NCBI GenBank assembly: GCA_037444165.1
Contig: JBBIMX010000004.1
Location: 19 to 64,018, forward strand
Reading direction: 5' to 3'
DNA from: Deltaproteobacteria bacterium
GTDB lineage: Bacteria > Desulfobacterota > BSN033 > UBA1163
DNA length: 64,000 nucleotides
In this document: in pieces, positions 33,550 to 49,138 of the stretch
Layout: each line of letters starts with the position of its first letter
How positions within the stretch are numbered: the first letter of the stretch is position 1
Notes under the pieces: model-generated
Told to the model about the DNA's origin: nothing
Database searches by the model: none
What the model saw: only the letters and a program-made list of their open reading frames with translations
Position numbers and translations under genes: made by a program

Positions 33550-34947
33550 ATGGATATTTATCAAAAGGCTAAACACTATTCGATCGAAAAATTTACCGTC
33601 AGTGCCTTATCCCTTCTGTCCAATGCGTCAGAGGAGCATTTGATTCGATTGACCATTCTGGCCGAAAAGATTCCCCAGAAAGAATCCTATCGGGAAAAGA
33701 TTCGCTGGATTCGAACCCTCTTTGAAACCCATCATCCTGGATTGACCTTGGCTAAAAGAGTTCTCAGCCAAACCCATCCCCTTCATCGACATAAACTGAT
33801 CTCAAACTTCATCATCAATCAACTCCTCGTGGGAACGAATCAACGAAAAGCCTTTGCGGAAAAAAGCGGGTTCTACCCACCCGATGCCATGCTCCTCAGT
33901 CCCACGATGAGATGTAACCTCCGATGTTATGGTTGTTATGCAGGGTCCTATTCAAAGCAAGAGGATCTCCCCTTGGAGATTATTGATCGACTGATAGAAG
34001 AATGCAAAGGGATGGGAATCTATTTGGTTCTGATGACCGGAGGGGAACCCTTTCTGAGGGAAGACCTTTTTGATCTCTTCGAGAAGCATGGGGACTGTCT
34101 CTTCCAAATTTATACCAATGCCACTCTTATCGATGAGAGGATGATCGAACGATTGGTTTCTCTGGGAAACGTGGTTCCAGCGATCAGCCTCGAAGGGTTC
34201 CGAGAGGAGACCGATGAAAGAAGGGGAAAAGGGCGATTTGATCAAATCCTTAAGGTGATGGATGGGCTAAGGAGGGCCGGCCTCTTCTTCGCTGTCTCCA
34301 CCACTCAGACCTCGAAAAATACAGAGGTATTGGGCAGCGAGGCTTTCGTTGACTTTTTGATTGAGAAGGGATGCATCCTCCTCTGGAATTTTCATTATGT
34401 TCCCATTGGAAAGGACCCGGATCTCAGTTTGATGGCCACCCCGGAACAGAGACAGAAGATCAGGCAACGCTTTGCGTATTTTCGGGCGACTAAACCCATG
34501 CTCTTTGTGGACTTCTGGAATGATGGTTGTCTGACCGGGGGGTGTATCGCAGCTGGGAGAAAGTACTTCCACGTCAATGCAAGAGGGGATGTTGAACCCT
34601 GTGTGTTCTGTCATTTCGCCTCGGATAATATCAAAGAAACGACCCTTTTCGAAGCCCTCAACTCACCCCTCTTCAAAGAGATCCGTAAAAGACAGCCCTT
34701 CTCGGAGAACCTCTATCGTCCCTGTCTTTTGATTGATCATCCGGAACAAGGAAGAGAGATTGCCTTAAAGCATGCCCGATACTTCACCCACCCCCAAGCC
34801 GAACAATTCTTTACCGAATTCTCTCAGGCCATTGATGCCTACGCGAAACGGTATGGTGAGATTGCCGAGAGGGCTTGGCAAGAACAGAAACAACTGAAAA
34901 ACCAACAAAGGGGTCATGGCCAAAAGGTTGCGGGTAGACATGGATGA
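33550..34947 (+). CDS. Radical SAM enzyme with a SPASM/twitch-like C-terminal Fe-S domain and an N-terminal extension of about 100 aa
   Basis: A CxxxCxxC motif (CNLRCYGCYAG) is followed by GGEPF. The C-terminal cysteine cluster GGCIAAG...CVFCHF is SPASM-like. Confidence 0.7.
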   Translation: MDIYQKAKHYSIEKFTVSALSLLSNASEEHLIRLTILAEKIPQKESYREKIRWIRTLFETHHPGLTLAKRVLSQTHPLHRHKLISNFIINQLLVGTNQRKAFAEKSGFYPPDAMLLSPTMRCNLRCYGCYAGSYSKQEDLPLEIIDRLIEECKGMGIYLVLMTGGEPFLREDLFDLFEKHGDCLFQIYTNATLIDERMIERLVSLGNVVPAISLEGFREETDERRGKGRFDQILKVMDGLRRAGLFFAVSTTQTSKNTEVLGSEAFVDFLIEKGCILLWNFHYVPIGKDPDLSLMATPEQRQKIRQRFAYFRATKPMLFVDFWNDGCLTGGCIAAGRKYFHVNARGDVEPCVFCHFASDNIKETTLFEALNSPLFKEIRKRQPFSENLYRPCLLIDHPEQGREIALKHARYFTHPQAEQFFTEFSQAIDAYAKRYGEIAERAWQEQKQLKNQQRGHGQKVAGRHG

Positions 34948-36044
34948 AAGTTACCTTTCCTCATCTTGGCACCATGCATATCTTCTGCAAGGCCATTGCA
35001 GAGACCTCCCACATCCCTTATGTCGTTCCTCCTGAGACCAGTCGCAGAACCCTTACCTTAGGCGTTCAACATTCAAACGAATGTATCTGTCTTCCTTTTA
35101 AAATCATCCTGGGGAATTTCATCGAGGCCCTGGAACGGGGGGCAGATACGATTGTCATGGTTGGAAGTGGTCCTCCCTGTCGACTGGGACTCTATGATCT
35201 GGTTCACAAAGTCATTCTCGAAGACCTTGGGCTTCCTTTTCGATGGCTGACGATCCCTCCTCGATTGACCTGGCAGGCCTTCTGGAAAAACTATGAAGAG
35301 ACAAAGGAGCTCAAAAAAGAGTTGACCTGGAAAAATATTCTTCTTTTCCCTTATGGACTCTATATGGGATGGAAGAAGATGATGGCCTGTGAGACCCTCG
35401 AGAAGCTGGCGATGAAGGTCAGGCCAAAAGAGATCCGAAAGGGAGAGACTCAGAAAAGATTAAAGAAGGCCCTCGATTGGGTGGATAAAGCTCAAACGCC
35501 AAAAAAAGTGGAGGAAGCCCTGAAGGGGGGAGAAAAACTCCTTCTAAACACGGAACAGGATCCTTCTCGAGCCGTTCTTAAAATTGCCATCGTAGGGGAA
35601 CTCTATACGGTGATGGATCCCCATATCAATCGAGGAGTCGAACAGAAATTAGGAGAATTGGGAGCAGAGGTCACCCGTTCTTCCTGGTTTTCCACCCATA
35701 TCCTCAGAAGTCTGAGAAAAAATAAAGCCAATCGACTCTCGGAGAGGATTCAGTTCCTCGAGGCTTCAAAGCTTTATCTGGGTTATGACGTGGGAGCGGA
35801 GTGTAATGTCTCGATAGGAGAAGCGATCTTAAGATCCAGAGAGGGGTATGATGGGGTCGTCCATCTCATGCCCTTTGCCTGTATGCCTGAGACTACCGCT
35901 TCCGGGATTTTAACCCGGGTGGGGAAGGATTGGAACATCCCCATCCTGACCCTTCTTCTGGATGAACAGGAAATCGAGGGCCGGATTCAAACTCTCCTTG
36001 AGGCCTTTGTGGAGATGTTGCAGTGGAAGAGAAAGGGGTCATAG
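34944..36044 (+). CDS. 2-hydroxyacyl-CoA dehydratase-like / activase-associated protein (DUF2229-type domain)
   Basis: The conserved cysteines (ECICLPF, GPPCRLG) resemble the C-terminal modules of fused CoA-substrate-specific enzyme activase proteins. The start overlaps the upstream stop as ATGA. Confidence 0.45.
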   Translation: MKVTFPHLGTMHIFCKAIAETSHIPYVVPPETSRRTLTLGVQHSNECICLPFKIILGNFIEALERGADTIVMVGSGPPCRLGLYDLVHKVILEDLGLPFRWLTIPPRLTWQAFWKNYEETKELKKELTWKNILLFPYGLYMGWKKMMACETLEKLAMKVRPKEIRKGETQKRLKKALDWVDKAQTPKKVEEALKGGEKLLLNTEQDPSRAVLKIAIVGELYTVMDPHINRGVEQKLGELGAEVTRSSWFSTHILRSLRKNKANRLSERIQFLEASKLYLGYDVGAECNVSIGEAILRSREGYDGVVHLMPFACMPETTASGILTRVGKDWNIPILTLLLDEQEIEGRIQTLLEAFVEMLQWKRKGS

Positions 36045-37042
36045 GAATTCCAAGGGCATTGATGTTTTATCGATATTTCCCCCTCTGGAGGAGTTTCTTC
36101 GAGGAGTTGGGTTGGAAGGTCCTCACCTCGGAGGAGTTAGGGAAAAGGGGAAGGCTTATCTATTTTGAGGACAGTTGCCTTCCCATGAAACTTTTAGTCA
36201 CCCATTCCCTCTCTTTAAAGGAAAGGGTCGACTTCCTATTCATTCCCCGCTTGGTCAGCCTCGATCGAGATTATATCATGTGCCCTAAGTTTCGAGGGGC
36301 TCCAGACATTGCTCGATTAGCCATGGAGGGATCCCCTCCAATACTGGATGAAACCATCGATGGACGAACGAAAGGATTTTCCTGGGAGGACGCCTTTTTA
36401 AGGATTGGAAAGAGATTGGGGGCTCAAAGAAAGGACATTCAAAAGGCTATCAAGAAGGCCTGGACTTTTTATTTCAATTTCATGAAGGGATGGGAAGAAC
36501 GGATCAATACCCTTCCTTTGAATCAACTTTGGGAATTTGAAATCCCTCCCGAGACCTCACAAAGAAAGGAGGAGCAATCCTATCGCGTAGCCTTAATAGG
36601 ACATCCTTACAATCTTTATGATAGGGATATCAGTAAAGATCTCCTCTCCTTTATTCGAAAGCTTGGGATGAGAATCACCACCTCGGATTCCCTTTCAAAA
36701 AAAGAGGTGGAGCAGGAGGTCTCAGGTCTTTCAAAAGAGATCTACTGGTCCTCAGGAAGAGAGATAGTCGGCTCTCTGTTTCACTTTCTCTCCAGCTCCC
36801 TTGATGGGGTGATTTTTCTTACCTCTTTCAAATGCGGGATCGATGCCCTCCTTCAGGAATTTGTCAAAAGAAGATTAAAGTGGATGGGAGAAAGCAAGAA
36901 GCCTCTCCTCATCCTCACCCTCGATGAGCATTCAGGAAGGGAGGGGTTGATGACACGGCTTGAAGCCTTCAGGGATGTGTTGGAACAAAAGAAGATTCAA
37001 AATCCGATCCATGAGGGTCAAAACCCTCTCACGGATGGTTAA
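36023..37042 (+). CDS. 2-hydroxyglutaryl-CoA dehydratase D-component-like protein (HGD-D family)
   Basis: The N-terminus (IGIPRALMFYRYFPLWRSFFEELGWKVLTS) is the HGD-D hallmark. It has a translationally coupled overlap with the upstream gene. Confidence 0.55.
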   Translation: MEEKGVIGIPRALMFYRYFPLWRSFFEELGWKVLTSEELGKRGRLIYFEDSCLPMKLLVTHSLSLKERVDFLFIPRLVSLDRDYIMCPKFRGAPDIARLAMEGSPPILDETIDGRTKGFSWEDAFLRIGKRLGAQRKDIQKAIKKAWTFYFNFMKGWEERINTLPLNQLWEFEIPPETSQRKEEQSYRVALIGHPYNLYDRDISKDLLSFIRKLGMRITTSDSLSKKEVEQEVSGLSKEIYWSSGREIVGSLFHFLSSSLDGVIFLTSFKCGIDALLQEFVKRRLKWMGESKKPLLILTLDEHSGREGLMTRLEAFRDVLEQKKIQNPIHEGQNPLTDG

Positions 37043-37044
37043 CG

Positions 37045-37986
37045 ATGGGACTTTATTTAGGAATTGATGTAGGGTCGATCACCACAAAAATGGCCGTCCT
37101 CAATGAGCAGGATGAGGTTTTAGCCCATGTCTATCTTCGAAACAATGGCCGACCCCTTGAAGCGATAAAGAAGGGACTCGAGCAGATTGAGTCTCAACTG
37201 GGAGTCCTTTCAGGGGTGGAGGGGGTGGCCACCACTGGCAGTGCTCGACATCTTGCAGCCTATCTGATCGGGGCCGATCTGATCAAGAATGAAATTACCG
37301 CCCATGCCATCGCTGTGATTGAATCTTTTCCAGAAGCCAAAACGATCATGGAGATTGGAGGACAGGATTCGAAGGTCATCCTCTTGAGGGAAGGGGTGGT
37401 GGTTGACTTTGCAATGAATACGGTCTGCGCGGCAGGGACAGGTTCGTTCCTGGATCAACAGGCCTCCCGGTTAGGAATTTCTATCGAAGAATTTGGCCGT
37501 TTAGCTCTTCGGGCAAAACACCCTGTCCGGATTGCAGGGCGATGTACGGTCTTTGCGGAAACCGATATGATTCACAAACAGCAGATCGGCCATGCGATGG
37601 AGGATATCCTCGCAGGACTGTGTGACTCTCTGGTGAAGAACTATTTGAATAATGTGTGTCGAGGAAAGGAGATCCTCCCTCCTGTGGTCTTTCAGGGAGG
37701 GGTAGCGGCGAATCCCGGGATACGCCAAGCCCTTGAGAAAGAACTGGGATTTGAACTGATCCTTCCAGAGTATTATGGGGTCATGGGAGCCATTGGAGCG
37801 GCCAAGCTCGTCAAACGGAGCAAACCCCAAAAGACACGATTCAAAGGATTTGAATGGTCTCGAAAACCCTGTCAAACTCGGGGCTTTGAATGTAACGAAT
37901 GCGGAAATCAGTGCGAGGTCATCCAACTCTGGGTGGACGATGAAGTGGTCGCCTCCTGGGGCGATCTCTGTGAGAGATATCGATGA
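37045..37986 (+). CDS. CoA-substrate-specific enzyme activase (BadF/BadG/BcrA/BcrD ATPase family, HgdC-like)
   Basis: The ASKHA fold N-terminus (LGIDVGSITTKMAV) and the AMNTVCAAGTGSFLD motif, with the cluster-bridging Cys, are present. The C-terminus is Cys-rich. Confidence 0.75.
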   Translation: MGLYLGIDVGSITTKMAVLNEQDEVLAHVYLRNNGRPLEAIKKGLEQIESQLGVLSGVEGVATTGSARHLAAYLIGADLIKNEITAHAIAVIESFPEAKTIMEIGGQDSKVILLREGVVVDFAMNTVCAAGTGSFLDQQASRLGISIEEFGRLALRAKHPVRIAGRCTVFAETDMIHKQQIGHAMEDILAGLCDSLVKNYLNNVCRGKEILPPVVFQGGVAANPGIRQALEKELGFELILPEYYGVMGAIGAAKLVKRSKPQKTRFKGFEWSRKPCQTRGFECNECGNQCEVIQLWVDDEVVASWGDLCERYR

Positions 37987-39353
37987 AGATTCTGATGATT
38001 AATCCCGCGCCCATCGGAACATTGAAAGCAACGGGTGTGCTCTTTCCACCCCTTGGTCTTCTTTACGTCGCTGCCGTTGCTGAAAAAGAAGGCCATGAGG
38101 TGGAGGTCGTGGATCTGGCTCTTCAAAAGAAGGGAGAAAAGATTGATTTTAAAAGGTATGAGATTGTAGGAATCTCTACGGACACGACCCGGCATCGCCA
38201 GGCTCTCCAATTGGCTAAGAGGGCGAAAAGAGAAGGCTGCACGGTAATCATGGGAGGCCCTCACCCGACCTATGTGGACAAAGAGATTCTCTCCACCGAA
38301 ATGGTCGATTTTATTGTTCGAGGAGAGGGAGAAGTCACTTTCTCGGAATTGATTTCAACTTTAAATCGGGAAAAGGGCAAGTTGGATTCCGTACAGGGGA
38401 TCAGTTTTTTATCCAAAGGCGAAATCCTTCGAACCCCCAGCCGCCCCTTTATTGAGAATCTCGATGAACTCCCCTTCCCTGCCAGGCATCTGGTTCCGAT
38501 GGAGAAGTACCGGCGAACAAAAATGGGAGACCGGGAGGTCACTCCTATCCTGACCAGTCGGGGGTGTCCATTTCAGTGCACCTTTTGTGCCTCATCCCAT
38601 TTTTTTGGAACGAAGGTCAGGCTTCGGAGTCCTGCATCGGTATTAAAGGAGCTCGAAGAACTCTATCATCGATACTCCTTTCAGGCCGTTGCCTTTGTGG
38701 ATGATACCTTCACTCTCTTTCCGGATAGGGTGATCGAAATTGGTAAAGGAATTCTGGAAAGAGGGATGAACCTCTGGTGGTGGTGTCTTTCGAGAGCGGA
38801 CCTTCTCATTCGAAACGAAGAGATGATTCAATGGATGGTTCGGTCAGGGGCGAAATCGGTCTTCATTGGAGTTGAGTCGGCCAATCCAAAGACCCTTGAG
38901 AGTCTGAAAAAAAGGATCGATCGAAACACCACGACTCGGGCTGTTGAAATGCTGAAACGATATGGCCTCGAGATCCATGCCTCTTATATCTTAGGCGGAC
39001 TCGATGAGACGGCTCGGGCAATTCATGAAACGATCCGATTGGCAAAAGAACTGGACACGAATGTGGCCCAATTTTCCATCCTTACCCCCTATCCAGGGAC
39101 CCTCCTCTATGAGCAGTTGAAGGATCGGATCTTCAGGTGGAGAGCTCCATGGTCATTTTTCGACATGCAACATCTGGTCTTCAAACACGACCATCTCTCC
39201 TTCATTCGGATGGAATGGCTTTTGATGAAGGCTCATCTTCTCTACTATCTGCGATCAAAGAAAGGGATTCGTGATCTCTGGCATCATATTAAAAAACACC
39301 GGATTACCCTTCGAACCTTCTTTCAATTTCTTAAAGAATACTTCTGGGGATAA
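37983..39353 (+). CDS. Cobalamin-binding (class B) radical SAM enzyme, paralog 1
   Basis: An N-terminal B12-binding Rossmann domain (MKILMINPAP...GHEVEVVDLA) is followed by a radical SAM core (RGCPFQCTFCAS). Confidence 0.8.
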   Translation: MKILMINPAPIGTLKATGVLFPPLGLLYVAAVAEKEGHEVEVVDLALQKKGEKIDFKRYEIVGISTDTTRHRQALQLAKRAKREGCTVIMGGPHPTYVDKEILSTEMVDFIVRGEGEVTFSELISTLNREKGKLDSVQGISFLSKGEILRTPSRPFIENLDELPFPARHLVPMEKYRRTKMGDREVTPILTSRGCPFQCTFCASSHFFGTKVRLRSPASVLKELEELYHRYSFQAVAFVDDTFTLFPDRVIEIGKGILERGMNLWWWCLSRADLLIRNEEMIQWMVRSGAKSVFIGVESANPKTLESLKKRIDRNTTTRAVEMLKRYGLEIHASYILGGLDETARAIHETIRLAKELDTNVAQFSILTPYPGTLLYEQLKDRIFRWRAPWSFFDMQHLVFKHDHLSFIRMEWLLMKAHLLYYLRSKKGIRDLWHHIKKHRITLRTFFQFLKEYFWG

Positions 39354-39355
39354 AG

Positions 39356-40270
39356 ATGGAGAATCGAGATCGTCTCTCTACCTACCGATTTCTCTCCCTC
39401 TTTCTCTTCCAATTCTTCTCTACCCTTATCCCCCGTTCCATGCAGAAGTTCTTCAGTGTCGTCGTAGGAGATCTCTTCTATTTATTGATGCCCAAGACAA
39501 GGACTTCTGTTCGAAAGAATATCGAAGGGATCAGCCAAGGAAGATGGGCGAAAGGAAAGATTGAAACCTATACCCGTAAAACTTTTCAGAACTATGGACA
39601 GTATCTCTTAGATTATATGGTCATGCATCGACTCTCTCCTTCTCATAAAGACCGGTGGGTGGAAGAAGAGATTGGAGGTCACTATATGATAGAAGCCCTC
39701 CAGAGAGGAAAAGGGGTGATCTGTATCACTCCTCATCTTGGAAACTGGGAGCTGGGAGGACTCCTCTTTTCCTTTAAAGGAGGAAAACTCAATGTCCTTA
39801 CCCTGGACGAAGAAGATCGAGGAATTAAATCTTATCGTGAAGAGATGCGAAGAAGATGGGGGATTCGAAACATCTATATTCACCCCGGAGACGATTCTCC
39901 TCTGGCCACCCTCGAAGCGGTTCAAGCATTGAGGCGAAATGAGATTGTGGCCATGTTGGGAGATCGGATCGAAACTCAGAGGACGATGGAGTTGGATTTC
40001 TTTGGTAAGAAAACCCCTTTCCCCATTGGAGCAGCCTTGATGGCCATGACCACAGGGGCTGCGGTCCTCCCGGTCTTTGTCGTCATGGAAAGGAATCGAA
40101 AATATCGAGGGATCATCGAATCCCCTGTCTATTTTGATTCCTCTTCTCGAGAGGAACGCGAATCCATCCTGAGAAAAGGGATGGAAGAGATCGTGAAAAA
40201 ATTTGAATCCTATATCGAAAAATATCCTGATCAATGGTATAATTTTTATTCTTATTGGAACGATTCCTGA
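39356..40270 (+). CDS. LpxL/HtrB-family lysophospholipid (lipid A-type) acyltransferase
   Basis: The HX4D-type motif ITPHLGNWELGG is present, with an N-terminal TM anchor. It is in the LPLAT_LABLAT-like family. Confidence 0.75.
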   Translation: MENRDRLSTYRFLSLFLFQFFSTLIPRSMQKFFSVVVGDLFYLLMPKTRTSVRKNIEGISQGRWAKGKIETYTRKTFQNYGQYLLDYMVMHRLSPSHKDRWVEEEIGGHYMIEALQRGKGVICITPHLGNWELGGLLFSFKGGKLNVLTLDEEDRGIKSYREEMRRRWGIRNIYIHPGDDSPLATLEAVQALRRNEIVAMLGDRIETQRTMELDFFGKKTPFPIGAALMAMTTGAAVLPVFVVMERNRKYRGIIESPVYFDSSSREERESILRKGMEEIVKKFESYIEKYPDQWYNFYSYWNDS

Positions 40271-40295
40271 GATCGATAAAAAGAGGGAGTTTCCA

Positions 40296-40565
40296 ATGAC
40301 ACCAAAGGATGAGATGATCGAAAAGATGAAACGACTCATTATTACGAGGTTAAAGCTGGTGGAGATGACCCCCGAAATGATTGACCCAGAGGCTCCCCTC
40401 TTCGGAGAGGGACTTGGACTGGATTCCATCGATGCCCTTGAGTTGGTATTAGGTTTGGAAAAAGAGTTTGGTGTCATGATCCCGGATGCGGAGGTGGGTA
40501 AAAAGGTCTTCCAATCGGTAAGAACGATGGCCGAGTATGTTTTAGACCATCAGCTCAAAGGTTAA
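40296..40565 (+). CDS. Acyl carrier protein
   Basis: The phosphopantetheine attachment motif GLGLDSIDALELV is present in a helical bundle of about 90 aa. The start is taken at MTPKDE. Confidence 0.8.
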   Translation: MTPKDEMIEKMKRLIITRLKLVEMTPEMIDPEAPLFGEGLGLDSIDALELVLGLEKEFGVMIPDAEVGKKVFQSVRTMAEYVLDHQLKG

Positions 40566-40569
40566 AGAG

Positions 40570-41502
40570 ATGGAAGCCAAAAACAAAATTGCCTTCTGTT
40601 TCCCAGGACAAATTCAGGAAAGACCCATTCTTTCGAAGTACCACCCCCTCTCTGAAGACCCTTTCTTCCGAGATTGGGTAGATCGGGCAGAGAAGGAAAC
40701 TGGAATAGAATTATGGAAATTTATGAACGAGGAGACGGAGGGAGAGCAAGTCCCTCTCAAATTACAGCTCACCACCTATCTCTTCTCGGTGATCTATTTT
40801 CAACGACTTTTAGAGAAAGGATGGACTCCTGAAATCCTCACCGAACATAGCATGGGAATCTATGCAGCGCTCACCGCTTCCGAGGCCATCACCTTTGAAG
40901 AAGGACTCTTTATCACCCATTCCATTGGGAGACTTCTCGAGGAAGAAGGGGCTCTCTGCCCCGGGATGATGGCAAGCATCATCGGTCTTCCTCTTGAAGA
41001 AATCCAGAAGATTATCAGTACCCTTGATGGATATCGCTTAGCCATTGCCAATTACAATGGATCAATGCATTTTGTGATTTCAGGAGAGGAGGAGGGGGTT
41101 CAAAAAGCGATGGAGCTTGCCCTGGCCCGGAAGGCCCTTTCAGTGAGTAAACTTTCTTTCAACACGGCTCTTCACTCTCCTCCCCTGAGCCATCTCAGGG
41201 GAAAGATCCGGGATCTGTTGAGGGAGATTGAAGTCCGTCCATTCCGGTATCCTATTCTTAATCACTGGACCATCCAACCACTCAACCGGGGGGAAGTGAA
41301 AGACTTTCTTTCCGAAGAGATTGCCCGCCCGGTTTACTGGGTTCGATGTGTGGAGAAATGTATTCAGGAAGGGGTTCGTCAGTTCGTCGAAGTCGGCAAA
41401 GAATCGACCCTGACGAAACTGATTCGTTGGATTGATCGGGAGGTCGAGGCCCTCTCGGCTGAGGAACTCCTCTTCTCGGGGGGACGAGATGGGATCCTAT
41501 GA
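40570..41502 (+). CDS. ACP S-malonyltransferase-like acyltransferase (FabD family)
   Basis: The sequences IAFCFPGQ and the nucleophile motif EHSMGIYAAL (GHSxG-like) are present. Length is 310 aa. Confidence 0.7.
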   Translation: MEAKNKIAFCFPGQIQERPILSKYHPLSEDPFFRDWVDRAEKETGIELWKFMNEETEGEQVPLKLQLTTYLFSVIYFQRLLEKGWTPEILTEHSMGIYAALTASEAITFEEGLFITHSIGRLLEEEGALCPGMMASIIGLPLEEIQKIISTLDGYRLAIANYNGSMHFVISGEEEGVQKAMELALARKALSVSKLSFNTALHSPPLSHLRGKIRDLLREIEVRPFRYPILNHWTIQPLNRGEVKDFLSEEIARPVYWVRCVEKCIQEGVRQFVEVGKESTLTKLIRWIDREVEALSAEELLFSGGRDGIL

Positions 41503-41911
41503 AACTCGATTCCGGGTTCGTTTTCATGAGGTCGATGCTTATGGAATGGTCTGGCATGGTCATTTTGTGGCCTGGTTTGAAATGGGTCGAAATGAATTGA
41601 CTGAAAAATTTGGCTTGGGCCCCTTTCAACTCAAGGGAAGAGGGCTCTTGGCTCCGGTGGTCCATCTTTCCTGTGAATTCAAACAACCTGCTCGGTTCGG
41701 AGAGACCCTTCTCCTTCAAACGAGTATGGAAAGGACGGAAGTGGCCAAGTTAATCTTTCATTATCGAATCCTCCACCAAGGAGAAGAAAAGATAGTGGCG
41801 ACAGGATCGACGACCCATGTGTTGACCGATCTCAATGGAAATCTCCTTTACCGGATCCCTCCCGACCTCCTTAAAAAGATAGAAGAGATGATGAAATTTT
41901 TAGGGGTATAG
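41489..41911 (+). CDS. Hotdog-fold acyl-CoA/acyl-ACP thioesterase (4HBT/YbgC family)
   Basis: The sequence VRFHEVDAYGMVWHGHFVAWFEMGRNE is typical of 4HBT. The start overlaps the upstream stop. Confidence 0.7.
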   Translation: MGSYETRFRVRFHEVDAYGMVWHGHFVAWFEMGRNELTEKFGLGPFQLKGRGLLAPVVHLSCEFKQPARFGETLLLQTSMERTEVAKLIFHYRILHQGEEKIVATGSTTHVLTDLNGNLLYRIPPDLLKKIEEMMKFLGV

Positions 41912-41912
41912 G

Positions 41913-43349
41913 ATGAAGGTTTTATTGATCGATCCTCCCCATCGAATCTTCCCTGGGTTAAGAATGTGGGCTCCTTCCTTTGGTCTTCTCCAACTCTCCG
42001 CCTATCTGGAAGCCGAGGGAGTGAGCGTTCAAATCATAGATGGAACCACTCTTCGAGAACCCTGGAAAGAGCTTCAAGAACAGATCGTCTCCTCAAAAGC
42101 CGATGTGATTGGAATCACCTGTACAGCTACCTGTCTATCTCCCGAAGCGATTCAGACGATTTATCTTTCACGAAGACTTTCTCCTCGATCCATCCTCGTG
42201 GGAGGAGGAAGTCACTTCACCCTGATGGCCAAAACCATTCTCGAGGAGGTTCCCGATCTGGACTACATTGTTCTGGGGGAAGGAGAGATCGCCTTTCTTC
42301 AACTTCTCAAAAGCCTTTCCAATGGAAAAAATGGAAGAGAGGTGAGGGGAATCGCCTATCGGGAAGATGGAAGGGTGATTCTCAATGAAAGACAGCCATT
42401 GATTACTCCTCTGGATGGTCTTCCTCTTCCAGCCTATCATCTCATCGATGTCGAGAGCGAAGCCTACTACTGGCATGGAATGGGTCGAAGGGCCTTTGGA
42501 GTGTCCACCAGTCGGGGATGTGGGGATCACTGTAGCTACTGTTCCGAGACAAAATTTTGGGAAGGGGTCTGGAGGGGAAGAAGCGGGAAGAAGGTCGTCG
42601 AGGAGATCTCCTTCCTTTATCGAAAATATGGAAAAAGTCTCTTTGTCTTTAATGAAAACGCCTTCAATTGGAGTCGGAAACGGCTGGAGGAGTTTCTCGA
42701 AGAGTTAGGAAAATCAGGGCTCCGGATTCATTTCTGGTTCCAATCTCGAGTGAAAGATATCCTGAGGGACGAAGATCTCCTTCCGGAAATGAAGCGCCTC
42801 GGCCTTTATGAGGTGATGTTAGGGATTGAGAGCATTCAACCCGACGTCCTACAGCGATATGAAAAAGACCAGTCTCGGGAGTTGGCTGAGAAGGCGATTG
42901 AGCTCCTTCGTCGAAATGGGATCATGGTCATGGCTAACGTCATGTTTGGGGATTGGAATGATTCGGAGGCCAATCTGAAAGAGATCTTTCGTTTTGTGAA
43001 AAAAAAGAGCGATTTCTTAGTCCTCACCATCACCACTCCTCTCCCTGGGACAAAATACTTCGAAGAGGCGGAGCGTCTGGGAAGGATAAGGGAAAAGGAC
43101 TTTGGAAAATACGACTTTATGCATCCCGTCATGGATACAAAATTTCTCTCCGCTCCTGAGGTAGAGCGACTTCAAAAGGCTTACCTTAAAAAGTATTATA
43201 CCCAACCGAGGATTCTGCTCGGAGCCTTCTTTAACCCAAACCCTTTTAAGAGAATGGCCTACCGACTCATCTTAAGATACGTCTGGGAGAATGCCACAAA
43301 GAGACCCTGGAAGCAACCCAATTGGAAAGATGACAGGCAAGAGGGATAG
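41913..43349 (+). CDS. Cobalamin-binding (class B) radical SAM enzyme, paralog 2
   Basis: B12-binding N-terminus (MKVLLIDPPHR...GVSVQIIDG). The radical SAM motif is RGCGDHCSYCSE. Confidence 0.8.
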   Translation: MKVLLIDPPHRIFPGLRMWAPSFGLLQLSAYLEAEGVSVQIIDGTTLREPWKELQEQIVSSKADVIGITCTATCLSPEAIQTIYLSRRLSPRSILVGGGSHFTLMAKTILEEVPDLDYIVLGEGEIAFLQLLKSLSNGKNGREVRGIAYREDGRVILNERQPLITPLDGLPLPAYHLIDVESEAYYWHGMGRRAFGVSTSRGCGDHCSYCSETKFWEGVWRGRSGKKVVEEISFLYRKYGKSLFVFNENAFNWSRKRLEEFLEELGKSGLRIHFWFQSRVKDILRDEDLLPEMKRLGLYEVMLGIESIQPDVLQRYEKDQSRELAEKAIELLRRNGIMVMANVMFGDWNDSEANLKEIFRFVKKKSDFLVLTITTPLPGTKYFEEAERLGRIREKDFGKYDFMHPVMDTKFLSAPEVERLQKAYLKKYYTQPRILLGAFFNPNPFKRMAYRLILRYVWENATKRPWKQPNWKDDRQEG

Positions 43350-43352
43350 AGA

Positions 43353-44696
43353 TTGAAATCAAAATCCACTCCCCACTCTCCGAATTCGAAAAAGGTCCTT
43401 CTTATCTTTCCGAGGGAGAAGGGGATCAAATTTTCAAACGATACCTTCTATCCCTTTCCCATGATTGGCCTTCCTCTTCTGGCCGCCTATTTTCCCAACA
43501 CCTACGAGGTCAAAATTCTAAACGAAGCCATCGAACCGATCGATTTCGATACGGAAGTGGATCTGGTCGGAATCACTGCCCTTACCTGTATAGCGCACCG
43601 GGCCTATGAAGTGGCGGATCGGTTCCGAAGAAGAGGGGTAAAGGTCATTTTAGGAGGGGTTCACCCAAGCATTCAACCTGAGGAGGCAAAGGAACACGCC
43701 GATTCTGTGGTGATTGGGGAAGCAGAAGGGGTCCTTGGAGAGATCCTCAAAGACTTTGAAGCCGGGGCCCTTAAACCTTTTTATCAGAATCATTCCCTGT
43801 GTGACTTAAGAGGACTCCCCTTGCCGAGAAGGGATCTTCTGAGTAAACGGTACAGCCCCTTGTTTAAGGCGATCGAAACCACCCGGGGCTGTCCCCATCG
43901 ATGCGAATTCTGTTCGGTCCCCATTCTCAATGGGAGAAGGTATCGGATGCGACCCCTCGAGGAGGTCGATCGGGAACTCTCCCTGATCATCAAAAAGCCA
44001 AAGGAGTATCTCTTTGTTACCGATGACAACATCGTCGCCATCGAGGATTATGCCCTCGGCCTCTTTGACATCTTTAAACGGCATCAGGTGAGATGGATGG
44101 GGTTTTCTACCCTTCAGATTGCAACCAATGAGACACTTCTGCGGAAAGCGAGCGAGAGTGGGTGTCTCTCTCTCTTTATCGGATTCGAATCCCTCCTTCA
44201 AGAGAATCTCAATCACGTCTCAAAGTCCTTTGTTCACACCGAACTTCTTCCGGAGTGGATTAGGAGCATTCATGGCTATGGAATTGGCATCCATGGTTCT
44301 TTCATCTTTGGCTTTGATGGGGATGATTCAACGATCTTTCGGAAAACCGTTGAGTTTGTTCAAAAGAATCGAATCGATCTTCCCTCTTTTTCTATCCTCA
44401 CCCCTTTTCCGGGGACTCGACTCTATCAGCGGTTAGAAGAGGAAGGCCGGATCATTGACCGCAATTGGTCCCATTACGATATGAGCCATGTCGTCTTTCA
44501 ACCCAAGCAGATGACGGTCAGACAGCTTCAAGAGGGATATCTCTGGGCTCAACAGTATAGCTGTTCTCCTCGTTCGATCTTCCAACGCCTCCTCTGGAGG
44601 TGGAGAAATCACTTTTTCTTTTTTTTAATGTCAAATTTTGTCCTCCGGGGAGCCCAAATGGATGTGATTCGAAGAATAAGAAAAAGGCCCCAATAA
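43353..44696 (+). CDS. Cobalamin-binding (class B) radical SAM enzyme, paralog 3
   Basis: B12-binding N-terminus (VLLIFPREKG...). The radical SAM motif is RGCPHRCEFCSVP. Confidence 0.8.
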   Translation: MKSKSTPHSPNSKKVLLIFPREKGIKFSNDTFYPFPMIGLPLLAAYFPNTYEVKILNEAIEPIDFDTEVDLVGITALTCIAHRAYEVADRFRRRGVKVILGGVHPSIQPEEAKEHADSVVIGEAEGVLGEILKDFEAGALKPFYQNHSLCDLRGLPLPRRDLLSKRYSPLFKAIETTRGCPHRCEFCSVPILNGRRYRMRPLEEVDRELSLIIKKPKEYLFVTDDNIVAIEDYALGLFDIFKRHQVRWMGFSTLQIATNETLLRKASESGCLSLFIGFESLLQENLNHVSKSFVHTELLPEWIRSIHGYGIGIHGSFIFGFDGDDSTIFRKTVEFVQKNRIDLPSFSILTPFPGTRLYQRLEEEGRIIDRNWSHYDMSHVVFQPKQMTVRQLQEGYLWAQQYSCSPRSIFQRLLWRWRNHFFFFLMSNFVLRGAQMDVIRRIRKRPQ

Positions 44697-44700
44697 AAGG

Positions 44701-46110
44701 ATGAAGATTCTACTGATCTCTATCAATCGGGAACGAATGCCGGCTCCTGTTTTTCCTCTGGGGCTGGCCTATATCGCCCGAGCTTTAAAAGAGAGGGGAC
44801 ATCGGATAGAAGTATCGGATCTCTGTTTTTCTCAAGATCCCTCTCACGAGGTTCAAGAGGTCCTCTTTCGATTTCAACCGGATCTCATAGGACTCTCCCT
44901 GAGAAATCTTGACAATCTGACCTATCCCCACTCTCTCTCTTATCTTGATGAACTCAAAGAGGTGATCTCCATCTGTCGTCAACTCCCCTCATCAAAATTA
45001 GTCCTCGGTGGCTCAGGGTTCTCCCTCGCACCTAAGGAACTCTTCAATGAACTGGATGTGGATTTTGGGATTATTGGAGAGGGGGAGGAGATCATGGTGA
45101 AACTGGTGGAATCTCTCGAAAGGAAGGAACCCCTCCCTTTCCTCCCCTCTCTTCTCATCAAAGGGGAACCGATCCCCTCTAAAATCGAAGGGGCCAGAGC
45201 CCCGTTGAGTTTTACCCCGGAACGCTCTTTCTTCAAGAGTGAGCGTTATCTCAGGGAAGGGGGAATGCTTAATCTTCAAACCAAACGGGGTTGCCCTTTC
45301 TCTTGTATCTACTGCACGTACCCTCTTCTGGAAGGCAAAGAGGTGAGACTCCGGCAGATAGAGGAAGTCATCGAAGAGATCCGACACCTCATCCAAGACG
45401 AGGGAGCGGATTATCTCTATTTCGTTGACGACCTCTTCAATTATCCCTCTTCCTATGCCGAGCAGTTATGTCGAAAGATGGTTCGGGAAGGACTGAAGGT
45501 TCGGTGGAGCGCCTTTATCCATCCTCGCTTTCTTTCCAAAGAACTCTTAAAATGGATGAAAGAGGCGGGATGTGTGGGGATTGAATTTGGAACCGACTCG
45601 GGTTCACCCAGAATGCTTAAACAGTATCGAAAAGCCTTTTCTCAAGAAGAGATCGTCCGCTCTTCCCGAATCTGTGAGGAACTCGGGATGAATTACTGTC
45701 ATTATCTTCTGCTGGGAGGACCTGGAGAGGATGAGGAAACCATCGAAGAATCCTTTCAATTGATGGATCGGCTCAATCCGACTGCAGTCATTGCTATGTT
45801 AGGGATCCGTATCTATCCGGGAACAGAACTCCATCGACTCGCTCTTCTCGAAGGGAGGATCCAGAAAGGGACTAATCTCGCCTATCCCATTTTTTATCTC
45901 TCTCCGAAACTTGAAGGAAGATTAGAAGAGATCCTTCGTGAAAAGGCCATGGAGCGAAGACAGTGGATCGTTCCAGGTCTCGAGATCAATCTCTCCAATA
46001 CCCTGATGGAACAGATTCGACAATTTCAGATTCGAGGTCCCCTGTGGGACCTTGTAGGCAGAATGAAACGGCCAAGAATAAGACCCTTAAAAAATGACGG
46101 AAGTCATTAA
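44701..46110 (+). CDS. Cobalamin-binding (class B) radical SAM enzyme, paralog 4
   Basis: B12-binding N-terminus (MKILLISINRERMPAP...GHRIEVSDL). The radical SAM motif is RGCPFSCIYCTYP. Confidence 0.8.
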   Translation: MKILLISINRERMPAPVFPLGLAYIARALKERGHRIEVSDLCFSQDPSHEVQEVLFRFQPDLIGLSLRNLDNLTYPHSLSYLDELKEVISICRQLPSSKLVLGGSGFSLAPKELFNELDVDFGIIGEGEEIMVKLVESLERKEPLPFLPSLLIKGEPIPSKIEGARAPLSFTPERSFFKSERYLREGGMLNLQTKRGCPFSCIYCTYPLLEGKEVRLRQIEEVIEEIRHLIQDEGADYLYFVDDLFNYPSSYAEQLCRKMVREGLKVRWSAFIHPRFLSKELLKWMKEAGCVGIEFGTDSGSPRMLKQYRKAFSQEEIVRSSRICEELGMNYCHYLLLGGPGEDEETIEESFQLMDRLNPTAVIAMLGIRIYPGTELHRLALLEGRIQKGTNLAYPIFYLSPKLEGRLEEILREKAMERRQWIVPGLEINLSNTLMEQIRQFQIRGPLWDLVGRMKRPRIRPLKNDGSH

Positions 46111-46125
46111 ATCGATTGTGGGAGG

Positions 46126-46872
46126 TTGACCATGTTACTTCAAGATAAGGTGGCAATTGTGACCGGGGGAACTCGAGGGATTGGAAGGGCCATCTCTCTC
46201 CTCTTCGCAGAGGAGGGGGCAAGGGTCGTGGCTAACTTTTCGAAAAACGTGGAGGCTGCAGAGTCCTTAATTGAAGAAGCTCGGAGCAAAAAATTGACAT
46301 TAGGGCTCTTTAAGGCCGATGTGACCCAATTTGATCAAGTCAAGGAGATGGTGGAGGAGGTCTTCAGAGGATACGGAAGAATCGATATTTTAGTGAATAA
46401 TGTGGGACTCGTCCGAGACAATTTTCTGATGCTCATGAGTGATGAAGATTGGGACTCCCTCCTCAAGGCAAATCTTACAAGTCTTTTTTATTGCTGTAGG
46501 GCTGTCATTCGGAAGATGATTCCGGAGCGAAGAGGGAAAATTGTCAATCTCTCTTCCATCAGTGGTATCCTTGGAACTTCTGGTCAAACCAACTATGCAG
46601 CGACCAAAGGAGGAGTGATCGGTTTTACCAAATCCCTGGCTCGAGAATTAGGACCCTTCAATATTCAGGTCAATGCGGTGGCTCCAGGATTGATTGAATC
46701 TGAGGTGGTCTCAAAAATGCCAAAAGAAAGGGTAGAGGCCATTATTAAATCCTCAAGCCTGGGAAGGATGGGGAAACCTGAGGAAGTGGCCCAGGCGGTC
46801 CTCTTCTTGGCCTCAGATCGTTCAAGTTATATCACCGGCCAAACCCTCATCGTCGATGGGGGAATCTTATAG
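46126..46872 (+). CDS. fabG: 3-oxoacyl-ACP reductase (SDR family, FabG-like)
   Basis: The cofactor-binding motif [11 protein letters not shown] and the catalytic motifs S...NYAATK are present, with similarity over the full length. Confidence 0.85.
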
Positions 46873-46877
46873 GGAAA

Positions 46878-48095
46878 ATGAAGAGAGTGGTGGTGACAGG
46901 ATTGGGTGTTTTTTGTTCGATAGGGAAAAATGTGGAGGAGTTTTTCCGATCCTTAAGAGAGGGCCACTCAGGAATCGGCCCGATCACCCTCTTTGATCCC
47001 TCGAAATATCCTTCGAAGATTGGAGCCGAAGTGAGGGATTATTTCCCGGAAAGATATTTTGAAAAGAAGGAACTTAAGAGGCTTTCGAGGACGGACCAGA
47101 TGGCCCTTATTGCGGCTGAAGAAGCAGTCCGATCCTCTAAATTTGAAACCTATAAGCCCGAAGAAGTAGGGGTCTGCATGGGTGCGGGTGCTGGCGGAAT
47201 GTTTGAAGCAGAAGGCTATCACCGGCAAGTGCTTCTCAAGGGAAAATCCCGCCCTTCTTTGATTCTTCCTTTTATCCCAAGCTATACTACAAACCGAATC
47301 ACAGAACGATTTGGACTTTCAGGGCCCAAAATGACCATTACTACTGCCTGCAGTTCATCGGCCACGGCCATCGGTTATGGGGCTGATCTGATTCGAAGGG
47401 GAAAATGCAAAGCCGTCTTATGTGGAGGAAGTGAGGCGTTGTGTGAACTCACTTTTGGGGGATTTAACTCCCTTAAAGCCATGGATCCCTCTCCCTGCAA
47501 ACCTTTCGATCGAAGGAGGGCTGGAATGTCATTGGGAGAAGGAGCAGCCATCTTGATCTTAGAAGATGAGGAGGAAGCAATAAAAAGGGGAGCGAGGATT
47601 TATGCGGAATGTTTAGGCTATGGAATCGGGGGAGAGGCTTACCATATTACAGCACCAGAACCCAATGGATTCATTGAGGCTCAAATCATGAGGCAAGCCC
47701 TTAAAGAGGGAAGAGTATCTCCAGAGCAGGTCGATTATATCAACGCCCATGGAACAGCGACACCTCTGAATGATAAAGTGGAAAGCCTGGCTATTAAAAG
47801 AGTGTTTGGTGAAAGGGCTTACCAGATTCCTGTAAGTTCGATCAAGTCAATGGTGGGTCATTGTCTGGGAGCGGCAGGGGCGATCGAGGCGGTCGCATCG
47901 ATTCTTTCCATCTTTTATCAATTTATCCCACCCACCCTAAACTTCGAGCAGGGAGATGAGGACTGCGATCTTGATTATGTTCCCAAGATGGCCCGAGAGA
48001 AAGAGGTCCAAGTGGTGCTTTCCAACTCCTTCGCCTTCGGCGGAAACTGTACCTCCCTTGCCTTCGGCAAGATAGATGGATCCTTTATTAGTTAA
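46878..48095 (+). CDS. Beta-ketoacyl-ACP synthase (KAS I/II, FabF-like)
   Basis: The Cys-His-His triad is present (TTACSSS, HGTATPLND, GHCLGAAG). Length is 405 aa. Confidence 0.85.
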   Translation: MKRVVVTGLGVFCSIGKNVEEFFRSLREGHSGIGPITLFDPSKYPSKIGAEVRDYFPERYFEKKELKRLSRTDQMALIAAEEAVRSSKFETYKPEEVGVCMGAGAGGMFEAEGYHRQVLLKGKSRPSLILPFIPSYTTNRITERFGLSGPKMTITTACSSSATAIGYGADLIRRGKCKAVLCGGSEALCELTFGGFNSLKAMDPSPCKPFDRRRAGMSLGEGAAILILEDEEEAIKRGARIYAECLGYGIGGEAYHITAPEPNGFIEAQIMRQALKEGRVSPEQVDYINAHGTATPLNDKVESLAIKRVFGERAYQIPVSSIKSMVGHCLGAAGAIEAVASILSIFYQFIPPTLNFEQGDEDCDLDYVPKMAREKEVQVVLSNSFAFGGNCTSLAFGKIDGSFIS

Positions 48096-48107
48096 AAAAA
48101 TTCTTTT

Positions 48108-48136
48108 TTGACAATCAAGACCAATTTTTATATATA
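48108..48136 (+). promoter_or_regulatory. Sigma70-type promoter: TTGACA, a 17 nt spacer, and TATATA
   Basis: Consensus hexamers lie upstream of tctC. A strong AGGAGGAGG RBS precedes the ATG at 48173. Confidence 0.5.
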
Positions 48137-48172
48137 AAAAAGAGAAATATATTATAGGAGGAGGTAAAAATC

Positions 48173-49138
48173 ATGAAAAAATTTTTCTGGCTACTCTTTG
48201 TTGTGTTCACATTGATAGGAGCAATCTGGAGCAAGGCTGAGGCGACCTATCCCGAGAGGGCGATTGAAATCATTGTCCCATTTGGGGTGGGTGGAGGAAG
48301 TGATACAGCAGCGAGGGCTGTAGCGGAAGGACTGAAACCGTTGCTTCCCGTTCCTCTGGTGATTACCAATATGCCAGGGGGTGGAGCAACAAAGGGGATG
48401 CTCCATGTCGCCCAGCAACCCGCAGATGGTTATACCATTCTCGCGGTCACCACTTCCCACCTCATCGATGCCGTAAAGCCCAAAACCCGAGCCCATATCC
48501 TAAGAGATTTTGATCCCATTATGAGAATCCAGTGGGACACCACCACCGTTTTTGTTTCTGGAGAGTCCAAATTTAAAACCCTTTCTGATCTGATTGAATA
48601 CGGGAAGAAACATCCAAGGATGCTCAAATTTGCAGGGACCTCTCCTGGAGGGTGGTCTGAGATCCAGACCGTGGCCTTCTTTAAAAAAGTAGGTATAGAA
48701 GTCACCTTCGTTCCATTTGAGTCAGGAGCAGAAATCAAGGCCGCTATCCTTGGAGGTCACATCCACGGAGCCATGGAGGAACTTGCCGAAACCTTGCCTC
48801 TCGTTAAGGCAGGAAAGTTGAGGGCTTTGGCCGTATTGATGGAAAAGAGGCATCCAGCTCTTCCCGATGTACCATGTACTCCAGAATTAGGAATCGATTA
48901 TACCCATGGATTGATGAGGGCCTGGGCTGTCCGAAAAGGGACTCCCCCGGATCGGATTAAATATCTTCACGATGTGATAAAAAAAGCGCTTGAAACCCCA
49001 GTGTATAAGAAGTTTGAACAGGATAACCATCTCTATGCCCGACCCGGTTACCTTGGGCCTGAAGAGACAAGAAAGTACTGGGAAGACCAGGTGAAATTTT
49101 TTACCGAAGTATTGAGGGATCTGGGTTATATAAAGTAA
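48173..49138 (+). CDS. tctC: Tripartite tricarboxylate transporter substrate-binding protein (TctC/Bug family)
   Basis: A signal peptide and a Bug/TctC periplasmic binding fold are present, followed by tctB and tctA. Confidence 0.8.
   Translation: MKKFFWLLFVVFTLIGAIWSKAEATYPERAIEIIVPFGVGGGSDTAARAVAEGLKPLLPVPLVITNMPGGGATKGMLHVAQQPADGYTILAVTTSHLIDAVKPKTRAHILRDFDPIMRIQWDTTTVFVSGESKFKTLSDLIEYGKKHPRMLKFAGTSPGGWSEIQTVAFFKKVGIEVTFVPFESGAEIKAAILGGHIHGAMEELAETLPLVKAGKLRALAVLMEKRHPALPDVPCTPELGIDYTHGLMRAWAVRKGTPPDRIKYLHDVIKKALETPVYKKFEQDNHLYARPGYLGPEETRKYWEDQVKFFTEVLRDLGYIK

Follow-up and report, generated by a model that had tools for sequence, protein, structure and literature searches.

Gene clusters that join fatty acid synthase (FAS)-like enzymes to several radical S-adenosylmethionine (SAM) enzymes, a glycosyltransferase and FabF paralogs were described in Kuenenia stuttgartiensis, an anammox bacterium, by Rattray et al. 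(2009). The authors also pointed to comparable clusters in Geobacter, Pelobacter and Desulfotalea psychrophila, the last of which yielded no ladderanes. In the Kuenenia gene table, two radical SAM genes (kuste3343 and kuste3342), a FabG gene (kuste3341) and an acyl carrier protein (ACP) gene (kuste3340) are adjacent, and kuste3335 encodes a glycosyltransferase. Here, we describe a related operon in a 64,000-nt stretch of DNA (“the window”) from a deltaproteobacterium (GenBank assembly GCA_037444165.1, contig JBBIMX010000004.1, positions 19 to 64,018 of the forward strand). The operon consists of 16 genes on the plus strand (31630–48095), four of which, referred to as R1 to R4, encode proteins with both a B12-binding and a radical SAM domain. 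The operon is not new in kind: it belongs, as a Syntrophales-type variant, to the widespread, catalogued family of TIGR04072 or “ladderane-like” lipid clusters. We consider it probable that R1–R4 are four distinct enzymes of class B type that tailor the ACP-bound chain of a specialised lipid.

In a survey based on antiSMASH, “ladderane” clusters are listed for Desulfobacterota and other phyla, where they are expressed and have no assigned function. Reviews published between 2023 and 2026 describe the B12-dependent radical SAM enzyme of ladderane synthesis as uncharacterised and still a candidate for cyclobutane formation, and anammox bacteria have no genetic system. According to a 2026 review, ladderanes and jawsamycin are the sole proposed cases in which radical SAM enzymes modify fatty-acyl lipids; compared with the tailoring of isoprenoid lipids, this field is almost unexplored. 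Our literature searches, which covered ladderane clusters of Geobacter, TIGR04072 and B12 radical SAM enzymes in the context of methyl-branched fatty acids, found no characterisation of this kind of cluster, and no description of the Syntrophales-type variant with its HgdAB-like/activase module and R2. The original prediction for this locus, made from the sequence alone, drew on the hopanoid enzymes HpnP and HpnR, the Fom3/GenK-type methyltransferases and the ring synthases of archaeal glycerol dialkyl glycerol tetraethers (GDGTs), a background that agrees with the reviews.

An operon with four B12-domain radical SAM genes

The product of R4 (44701–46110, 469 aa) scores 402.8 bits against the model TIGR04072, “lipid biosynthesis B12-binding/radical SAM protein” (rSAM_ladder_B12), which has a cutoff of 360, and the match extends over model positions 1–440 of 443. 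R1 (118 bits), R2 (98 bits) and R3 (84 bits) stay below this cutoff. Both in the window and in its relatives, R4 has a lipid-type neighbourhood, with genes for an ACP, a ketosynthase (KS), a ketoreductase (KR) and further radical SAM enzymes. More than 6000 homologs of R4 are present in the protein collection, the nearest being 94% identical and followed by many proteins at ~70% from metagenome-assembled genomes (MAGs) of Thermodesulfobacteriota; NCBI already gives such homologs the name of the TIGR04072 family. In a scan of one genome per species, relatives were found in at least 579 species. Many of these are uncultured anaerobes known from MAGs, and the family is expressed in nature. The window itself is a further instance of the Syntrophales-type variant and little beyond that.

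As originally predicted, the four genes encode proteins of 447–478 aa, each with a B12-binding domain and a radical SAM core. R1 (37983–39353, 456 aa), R2 (41913–43349, 478 aa), R3 (43353–44696, 447 aa, with a DUF4070 tail) and R4 all pass the Pfam cutoffs for PF02310 (B12-binding; 74.7, 69.9, 48.2 and 62.1 bits, respectively, against 32.1) and PF04055 (Radical_SAM; 84.3, 52.8, 57.4 and 77.2 bits against 29.5). Their CxxxCxxC cores are CPFQCTFC at residue 195 (R1), CGDHCSYC at residue 203 (R2), CPHRCEFC at residue 180 (R3) and CPFSCIYC at residue 198 (R4). All four proteins thus have the N-terminal Rossmann-type B12 domain and the CxxxCxxC core by which class B is recognised. R2, R3 and R4 are in direct tandem, with 3–4 bp between them, again as predicted.

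The coordinates of R3 hold for its longer form, which begins at the TTG codon at 43353. In two near-identical contigs (L081 and L082 among the related loci), automatic gene callers chose the ATG at 43461 instead, giving a protein of 411 aa and stripping the first β strand from the B12 domain. We prefer the TTG start because homologs of R3 align from residue 11–14 of the long form, taking in the β1 strand KKVLLIFP, and because an AGAGGGA-like ribosome-binding site lies ahead of the TTG.

None of the four proteins contains DxHxxG. A lack of cobalamin-binding residues had been named in advance as grounds for abandoning the proposal. However, structurally characterised cobalamin radical SAM enzymes bind the cofactor base-off, with no His ligand; in this class, the absence of DxHxxG is normal and uninformative, which makes it a poorly suited test and no evidence against the proposal.

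The window proteins were mapped by tblastn onto the best 80 loci. Orthologs of each gene recur in other genomes, in the same order and at 57–97% identity, which argues that the four-gene set is not a product of chance. Clustering of the B12 radical SAM genes in these loci yields five orthogroups. R4 is the core, signature member, present in 77 of the 80 loci; R3 is near-core, with 90 copies in 66 loci, and is often duplicated. R1 is accessory (16 loci) and occurs in both of the cluster types described below, always between the SPASM/activase genes and the LpxL-like gene; it is absent from L001, L002, L014 and L016. R2 (12 loci; orthologs 76–97% identical) is confined to one cluster type and, wherever the relevant region is covered, occurs only together with the HgdAB-like/activase genes. 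The fifth orthogroup, found in seven loci, has no member in the window. Pairwise identity among R1–R4 is only 25–30% and each belongs to its own orthogroup conserved across genomes; by this measure the four are ancient, non-redundant paralogs, in line with the original suggestion that they are not redundant. In fully covered clusters, the number of B12 radical SAM genes varies from two to five on a scaffold that is otherwise constant, as would fit tailoring enzymes with separate jobs.

The loci fall into two cluster types. In Syntrophales-like MAGs, the type to which the window belongs and the only one with R2, the order is ATP-grasp (optional), family-2 glycosyltransferase (GT2), SPASM radical SAM enzyme, HgdA-like, HgdB-like, activase, R1 (optional), LpxL-like acyltransferase, ACP, acyltransferase (AT), thioesterase (TE), R2, R3, R4, KR and KS. 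In Geobacterales/Desulfuromonadales, the order is GT2, SPASM, R1 (optional), LpxL-like, ACP, one or two R3-like genes, the fifth B12 type (optional), AT, TE, R4, KR and KS, followed by a CLF-like (chain length factor) KS, a FabA-like hot-dog protein, LolA-like and LolB-like proteins and an MMPL exporter. Cultured carriers of the Geobacterales type include Geobacter argillaceus, Geobacter sp. AOG1, Geomonas sp. Red32 and Oryzomonas japonica. KR adjoins R4 in almost all loci that reach past it.

Several loci depart from these arrangements. In L019 (6642–13672; Deltaproteobacteria bin116, CP070817), the R4–KR pair is kept (57% and 61% identical to the window proteins), and its neighbours encode two canonical HGD-D subunits, a Memo-like protein, an enoyl-CoA hydratase and an FMN reductase, while ACP and KS are missing; this suggests that the pair can also serve a pathway of CoA thioesters. 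Some Syntrophales-type loci (L083, 9386–9910 and 15785–18120; L004, 13197–14561) have an IS200-like Y1 transposase gene between TE and R2 and, just past KR on the opposite strand, an extra B12 radical SAM gene (~43% identical to R3) with SAM methyltransferase genes. R4 orthologs that are 48–57% identical are found outside Thermodesulfobacteriota, in two Holophagales MAGs (L077 and L080), a genome labelled Pedobacter (L073) and a member of Pseudomonadota (L018); an R3-like gene lies beside R4 in L077, L080 and L018, and only TE does so in L073.

The lipid scaffold and the HgdAB-like module

The operon is tightly packed, with intergenic spacings of −71 to +25 bp from GT2 through KS. A scan of 30000–49500 for promoters and terminators gave the same counts as shuffled controls and is uninformative on the operon boundaries. 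The first gene of the cluster is probably that for an ATP-grasp protein (31630–32784; Pfam ATPgrasp_Ter and ATP-grasp_3), 67 bp upstream of GT2; in a related locus (L084), an ATP-grasp gene is likewise found upstream of GT2.

GT2 (32852–33544; PF00535, 95.7 bits) resembles polyprenyl-phosphate sugar synthases. Its top NCBIfam matches, AglJ and PpgS, are both below cutoff, and it is kept at 43–50% identity in Geobacterales-type clusters. Next to it in both cluster types is the gene for the SPASM radical SAM enzyme (33550–34947; PF04055, 85.4 bits; PF13186, 32.3 bits), which lacks a B12 domain, has the motif CNLRCYGC at residue 122 and reaches no NCBIfam cutoff. With R1–R4, it brings the radical SAM genes of the operon to five. 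The LpxL/PatA-like, lysophospholipid-type acyltransferase (39356–40270; PF03279, 109 bits) is also present in both cluster types.

The prediction had placed ACP, KS and KR genes near the radical SAM genes, and all three are there. The dedicated ACP (40296–40565) scores 71.9 bits against NF006617 (cutoff 70) and has the serine motif LGLDSID. The KR (46126–46872) is a FabG-type 3-oxoacyl-ACP reductase (PF13561, 224 bits; NF009466, 266.5 bits against a cutoff of 222), and the KS (46878–48095; PF00109 and PF02801; NF005589, 435 bits against 387) is of FabF type, with an intact Cys-His-His triad in the motifs TACSSS, HGTATP and GHCLGAAG. A FabD-like AT of the malonyl-CoA:ACP type (40570–41502; PF00698, 51 bits) has the active-site motif EHSMG and scores 146.5 bits against the FabD model TIGR00128, below the cutoff of 260.9. 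The TE is of 4HBT/YbgC type (41489–41911; PF13279 and PF03061; TIGR00051, 74.5 bits against 68.7); its start at ATG 41489 gives 140 aa, the same form as is called in relatives.

Much of this scaffold is homologous to that of aryl-polyene (APE) clusters. Using the E. coli CFT073 ape cluster (apeA-R) as the reference, blastp matches between window proteins and APE homologs have identities of 24–49% and E-values of 1e-10 to 1e-67. GT2 matches the N-terminal half of ApeJ (27.5% identity) and the LpxL-like acyltransferase its C-terminal half (23.8% over 277 aa); ACP matches ApeE (49%), TE matches ApeK (30%), KR matches ApeQ (35%) and KS matches ApeO/ApeR (33%). No window protein matches ApeH (the aryl starter), ApeI/P or ApeL/M/N. 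An export set and a FabA-like dehydratase (DH) occur only in the Geobacterales-type relatives, where the Geobacter FabA-like ORF is 30% identical to ApeP and the MMPL protein is 22% identical to ApeM. The APE counterparts have been proposed to act in chain release, in attachment to an anchoring glycolipid and, with a LolA/LolB/MMPL-type set, in export to the outer membrane (PMC8253772).

Three further genes lie between the SPASM gene and R1. Like the SPASM enzyme and membership in the ladderane-like family, they formed no part of the original prediction. Two encode DUF2229/HGD-D-like proteins, subunit A (34944–36044; PF09989, 45.9 bits) and subunit B (36023–37042; PF09989, 138 bits), and the third an HgdC/BcrAD-type ATP-dependent activase (37045–37986; PF01869, 162 bits; TIGR00241, 196.6 bits against a cutoff of 125.4). 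Both subunits pass the DUF2229 model; against the HGD-D model (PF06050), they score 25.5 and 18.3 bits, below the cutoff of 28.4. Among orthologs of subunit A, which are 79–86% identical in close Syntrophales-type loci and 68% identical in the most distant one (L015), Cys15, 49, 79, 149, 287 and 313 are invariant. There are just three Cys residues in subunit B (52, 87 and 271), and 12 sequences have all of them. By sequence, subunit A has only marginal matches among solved structures (E ~0.02–0.04), to double-cubane cluster proteins (6eno), and subunit B has none. In the activase, Cys128 and Cys167 are invariant; these correspond to the two cluster ligands of HgdC. The pair and the activase look like a working ATP-driven electron-injection system. 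Its target could be the ketyl-type dehydration of a hydroxyacyl thioester, or it could provide reductive activation linked to R2. The activase also has a Cys-rich C-terminal tail (37870–37986; Cys276, 283, 286, 290 and 309), which is conserved in orthologs, lies outside the Pfam BcrAD_BadFG match (residues 5–253) and may be an added metal site.

A proposed tailoring pathway and its alternatives

After TIGR04072, the closest curated models for R4 are BzaD (229 bits; cutoff 450) and TsrM (148 bits; cutoff 500). TsrM, a tryptophan 2-C-methyltransferase, is also the nearest solved structure, both by sequence (124 bits, ~24% identity) and by fold (Foldseek E = 5e-23, TM ~0.35). In TsrM, Arg69, in the loop after strand 3, is positioned under the cobalt and stabilises the reduced cofactor. 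In a HMMER alignment, Arg68 of R4 aligns with this residue, and the surrounding motif, S-x-R68-N-x-D-N-x-T, is invariant in 77 of 77 R4-family sequences (48–70% identical to the window R4). The motif is the best available sequence evidence that R4 may bind cobalamin and cycle it as a methyl carrier; among R1–R4, a lower-face residue is identifiable only here. A second TsrM residue, Glu273, is a ligand of the unique iron and keeps the enzyme from generating a radical. At its position, all 77 sequences have Ile, Leu or Val, so that SAM should be able to bind the cluster normally; R4 is therefore probably a conventional 5′-deoxyadenosyl-radical enzyme rather than a non-radical methylase of TsrM type. 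Given the residue at this position, Arg68, and BzaD and TsrM as closest models, cobalamin-dependent C-methylation is the most likely reaction of R4.

From the composition of the operon, we infer the following substrate, order of steps and fate of the product. The FabD-like AT would load the dedicated ACP; chain extension would fall to the FabF-like KS and reduction to the FabG-like KR, while dehydration and enoyl reduction would be borrowed from housekeeping FAS II or bypassed. The radical SAM set would then tailor the ACP-bound chain: R4, almost always beside KR, most likely as a methylcobalamin-dependent C-methyltransferase; R3 as a near-universal tailoring enzyme; and R1 and R2 as optional additions altering further positions. 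The SPASM enzyme would contribute another radical step, and the DUF2229/HgdAB-like Fe-S proteins, with the HgdC-type ATPase, would supply ATP-driven one-electron (ketyl-type) chemistry alongside R2. Finally, TE, the LpxL-like acyltransferase and GT2 would join the product to an anchoring glycolipid, a route put forward for aryl-polyene lipids. A precedent for a pantetheine-linked substrate of a B12 radical SAM enzyme is CysS, whose structure has been solved with a pantetheinylated substrate. Acyl-chain tailoring by R1–R4, as first put forward, is a reasonable but unproven idea; its “iterative” character, the choice between methyl branching and ring formation, and the acyl-ACP substrate are at present conjecture.

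Several observations weigh against this proposal. Cobalamin binding by R1–R4 is predicted from the domain, and no cobalamin riboswitch or cobalamin genes are found in the 64-kb window; we set aside control of the operon by such a riboswitch for this reason. An AF2 model based on 19 aligned sequences is only moderate for R4, with a pLDDT of 64.8 and disordered cofactor loops, and offers no basis for pocket analysis. For R1 and R2, the top NCBIfam model is BchE, a cyclase and not a methylase, though the scores are far below its cutoff, and the structure closest to R1 by sequence, and second for R3, is that of AprD4, a dehydratase that does not use cobalamin. Homologs of a cluster-encoded dehydratase, a CLF or an exporter are absent from the 64-kb window, which leaves the aryl-polyene analogy incomplete, although these genes may be elsewhere in the genome or dispensable. 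Lastly, no member of the family has an assigned product, and anammox homologs expressed in a heterologous host yielded no new lipid and mostly insoluble enzymes.

It is unlikely, but conceivable, that some of the paralogs, R1 and R3 in particular, work without cobalamin and carry out an AprD4-like radical dehydration or deoxygenation with a short-chain dehydrogenase/reductase (SDR)-type reductase, replacing the missing dehydratase. AprD4 and its partner AprD3 are a dehydratase–reductase pair, which the near-universal adjacency of R4 and KR recalls. By sequence, the AprD4 structure is the nearest to R1 (87.5 bits), for which MgmA, the glutamine methylase of methyl-coenzyme M reductase (MCR), is also among the nearest; it matches R4 (86 bits) and is next after MgmA for R2 and R3 (46 bits for R3). 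R1 and R2 also match TokK, more weakly, and all of these matches to solved structures are remote. In addition, no hot-dog dehydratase accompanies the KS and KR of the window cluster, whereas clusters of the Geobacterales type include a FabA-like ORF. One review classes AprD4 and ArsL as unrelated to the B12-dependent group; AprD4, which has a Rossmann-like domain yet no cobalamin, shows that a B12 domain alone is no proof of binding. However, all four paralogs pass the Pfam B12-binding cutoff, the AprD4 family model gives R1–R4 only 42–110 bits against a cutoff of 500, and R4 retains the TsrM-type Arg beneath the cobalt site. Moreover, Geobacterales-type clusters hold a FabA-like DH as well as R3 and R4.

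The second alternative, which we regard as rather improbable, is that the enzymes catalyse ring closure or C–C cross-linking and not methylation, so that these anaerobes would make an unrecognised cyclic or bridged lipid. R4 belongs to a curated family named after the ladderane clusters, reviews list the anammox B12 radical SAM enzyme as a cyclobutane candidate, and the archaeal GDGT ring synthases are B12 radical SAM enzymes. The SPASM enzyme, which belongs to a type frequently employed in cross-linking, is also a constant partner. R1 and R2 are closer to BchE, which forms a ring, than to any methylase model: against TIGR02026 (BchE; cutoff 481), R1 scores 208 and R2 251 bits, compared with 75 for R3 and 79 for R4. 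The hopanoid models HpnR and HpnJ (cutoffs 650 and 578) give at best 171 and 179 bits, both for R1, and HpnJ is the top NCBIfam model for R3, at 97 bits. Against ring formation, the family occurs in its hundreds of species mostly outside the anammox bacteria, no ladderanes were detected in Desulfotalea psychrophila, which carries a related cluster, the window lacks the phytoene-desaturase-like gene, FabZ and CLF of the anammox clusters, and the nearest characterised relatives of R4 are methyltransferases.

In the most far-reaching reading, to which we give a small chance, non-anammox anaerobes (Syntrophales-like bacteria, Geobacterales and some Holophagales) would build an envelope lipid that has gone undetected. 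Up to five cobalamin radical SAM enzymes, together with the SPASM enzyme, would act at unactivated carbons of its chain, with cyclisation, cross-linking or heavy C-methylation as the outcome, and in the window variant the ATP-driven HgdAB-like module would act on the ACP-bound lipid. In that case, the elementary step with which anammox bacteria begin ladderane formation would be the one catalysed by the R4 family, and it could be studied in cultivable Geobacterales carriers.

A non-lipid substrate, with R1 and R2 as BchE-type tetrapyrrole cyclases, or with modification of a ribosomally synthesised peptide (RiPP) or a cofactor, and with the FAS-like genes merely adjacent, is highly improbable: BchE is indeed the top model for R1 and R2, and the models for ApyD (RiPP) and BzaD (cobamide lower ligand) score partially, but the BchE scores do not exceed about half of the cutoff, the window contains no genes for photosynthesis or tetrapyrroles, and the radical SAM genes overlap or abut those for ACP, AT, TE, KR and KS in one operon whose linkage is conserved across orders. 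Clustering with BchE had been named at the outset as a result that would count against acyl-chain tailoring; R1 and R2 do score best against BchE, but the low scores and the lipid-operon context indicate that the likeness, judged by sequence, is one of family and not of function. JGI pipelines label R2 orthologs (P0126, P0140–P0143 and others) as [quoted passage not shown], although their scores are far under the BchE cutoff and non-phototrophs carry them within lipid operons; this label is probably a propagated mis-annotation.

Two other products were considered. Synthesis of branched GDGTs (brGDGTs) or other membrane-spanning lipids was set aside because the SPASM enzyme has no match to tetraether synthase structures at E < 1e-4, and it is further disfavoured by the resemblance of the scaffold to an accessory lipid pathway of aryl-polyene type. 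Polyunsaturated hydrocarbons such as those of Desulfotalea are usually attributed to the Pfa and Ole pathways. Proposed by Rattray et al. as the product, they were likewise set aside. We retain the tailoring of an ACP-bound chain by four distinct class-B-type enzymes as the probable role of R1–R4.

Genomic surroundings and comparison with described systems

The operon is flanked by housekeeping genes: TatAC upstream, and TctCBA with genes of tricarboxylate metabolism downstream. The latter, just past the operon (48173–59295, plus strand), encode a TctCBA tricarboxylate transporter, PrpD-like and PrpF-like proteins, a fumarate-reductase-type flavoprotein, a ferredoxin-like protein, aconitase and isocitrate dehydrogenase. 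Their order is also kept in the 94%-related contig L082, and they probably form a tricarboxylate-utilisation unit unrelated to the lipid operon. Elsewhere in the window, a thiamine pyrophosphate (TPP) riboswitch (14487–14594, plus strand; RF00059, 65.5 bits) precedes a thiamine operon (14645–18092) with a Thi4-type thiazole synthase, a ThiD-ThiN fusion and ThiC. A 512-aa protein encoded at 7463–9001 (plus strand) consists of a BamD/YfiO lipoprotein region, TPR repeats and a C-terminal LptA/LptD_N domain, an unusual joining of modules for outer-membrane protein assembly and lipopolysaccharide transport; its presence indicates that the organism is diderm.

The wider family offers several handles on the product and its chemistry: (i) a constant R4–KR core; (ii) optional R1, R2, R3 and fifth-type enzymes; (iii) an aryl-polyene-like scaffold for anchoring and export; and (iv) cultured Geobacterales carriers. 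Such a comparative picture could help with the stalled ladderane problem, where poor expression of the enzymes is a further obstacle.

Among single enzymes, TsrM and BzaD are the nearest characterised relatives of R4 by profile, sequence and fold, and the equivalent of the TsrM Arg is kept. However, identity is only ~24% and the models are far below cutoff; the Glu273 that blocks SAM binding in TsrM is absent from R4, and the presumed context is an ACP-bound chain instead of an aromatic ring. BchE shares its two-domain layout with R1 and R2 and is their best curated model, but R1 and R2 have no photosynthesis context and are embedded in an ACP/KS/KR operon. The three-gene module resembles HgdAB with HgdC (“archerase” systems) in its activase, which passes TIGR00241 and keeps both cluster Cys residues; the DUF2229 pair has invariant Cys sets and a weak similarity to HGD-D and double-cubane proteins. 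In contrast to the HGD-D systems, the partner proteins here belong to DUF2229 and fall short of the HGD-D cutoff, and the carrier would be ACP and not CoA.

Among clusters, that of Kuenenia (kuste3335–3352) has a radical SAM–radical SAM–FabG run like R3–R4–KR, a likeness of gene order only. With the Kuenenia and deltaproteobacterial clusters (Desulfotalea DP1853/DP1855, Geobacter and Pelobacter), the window operon has in common a glycosyltransferase, ACP, FabG, FabF and several radical SAM genes. The anammox ladderane clusters (kuste3603–3608 and kuste3335–3352) are characterised by a phytoene-desaturase-like gene, FabZ and a FabF2/FabFmut pair, and by Pfam and homolog searches the window operon does not have this set; compared with Kuenenia, it is also without a SAM methylase, a phenylacetyl-CoA ligase and a second KS/CLF, whereas its extra components are the pair of DUF2229/HgdAB-like proteins, the HgdC-type activase and a member of the R2 orthogroup. 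APE clusters are homologous in GT2, the LpxL-like acyltransferase, ACP, TE, KR and KS, and the CLF, FabA-like DH, LolA-like, LolB-like and MMPL proteins of the Geobacterales relatives match the APE set for export. The window differs from APE clusters in having no aryl starter module, cluster dehydratases or exporter, and in having five radical SAM enzymes where APE clusters have none. To judge from these homologies, the family looks like an accessory-lipid pathway of APE type in which radical SAM tailoring replaces the aryl starter and the polyene dehydratases.

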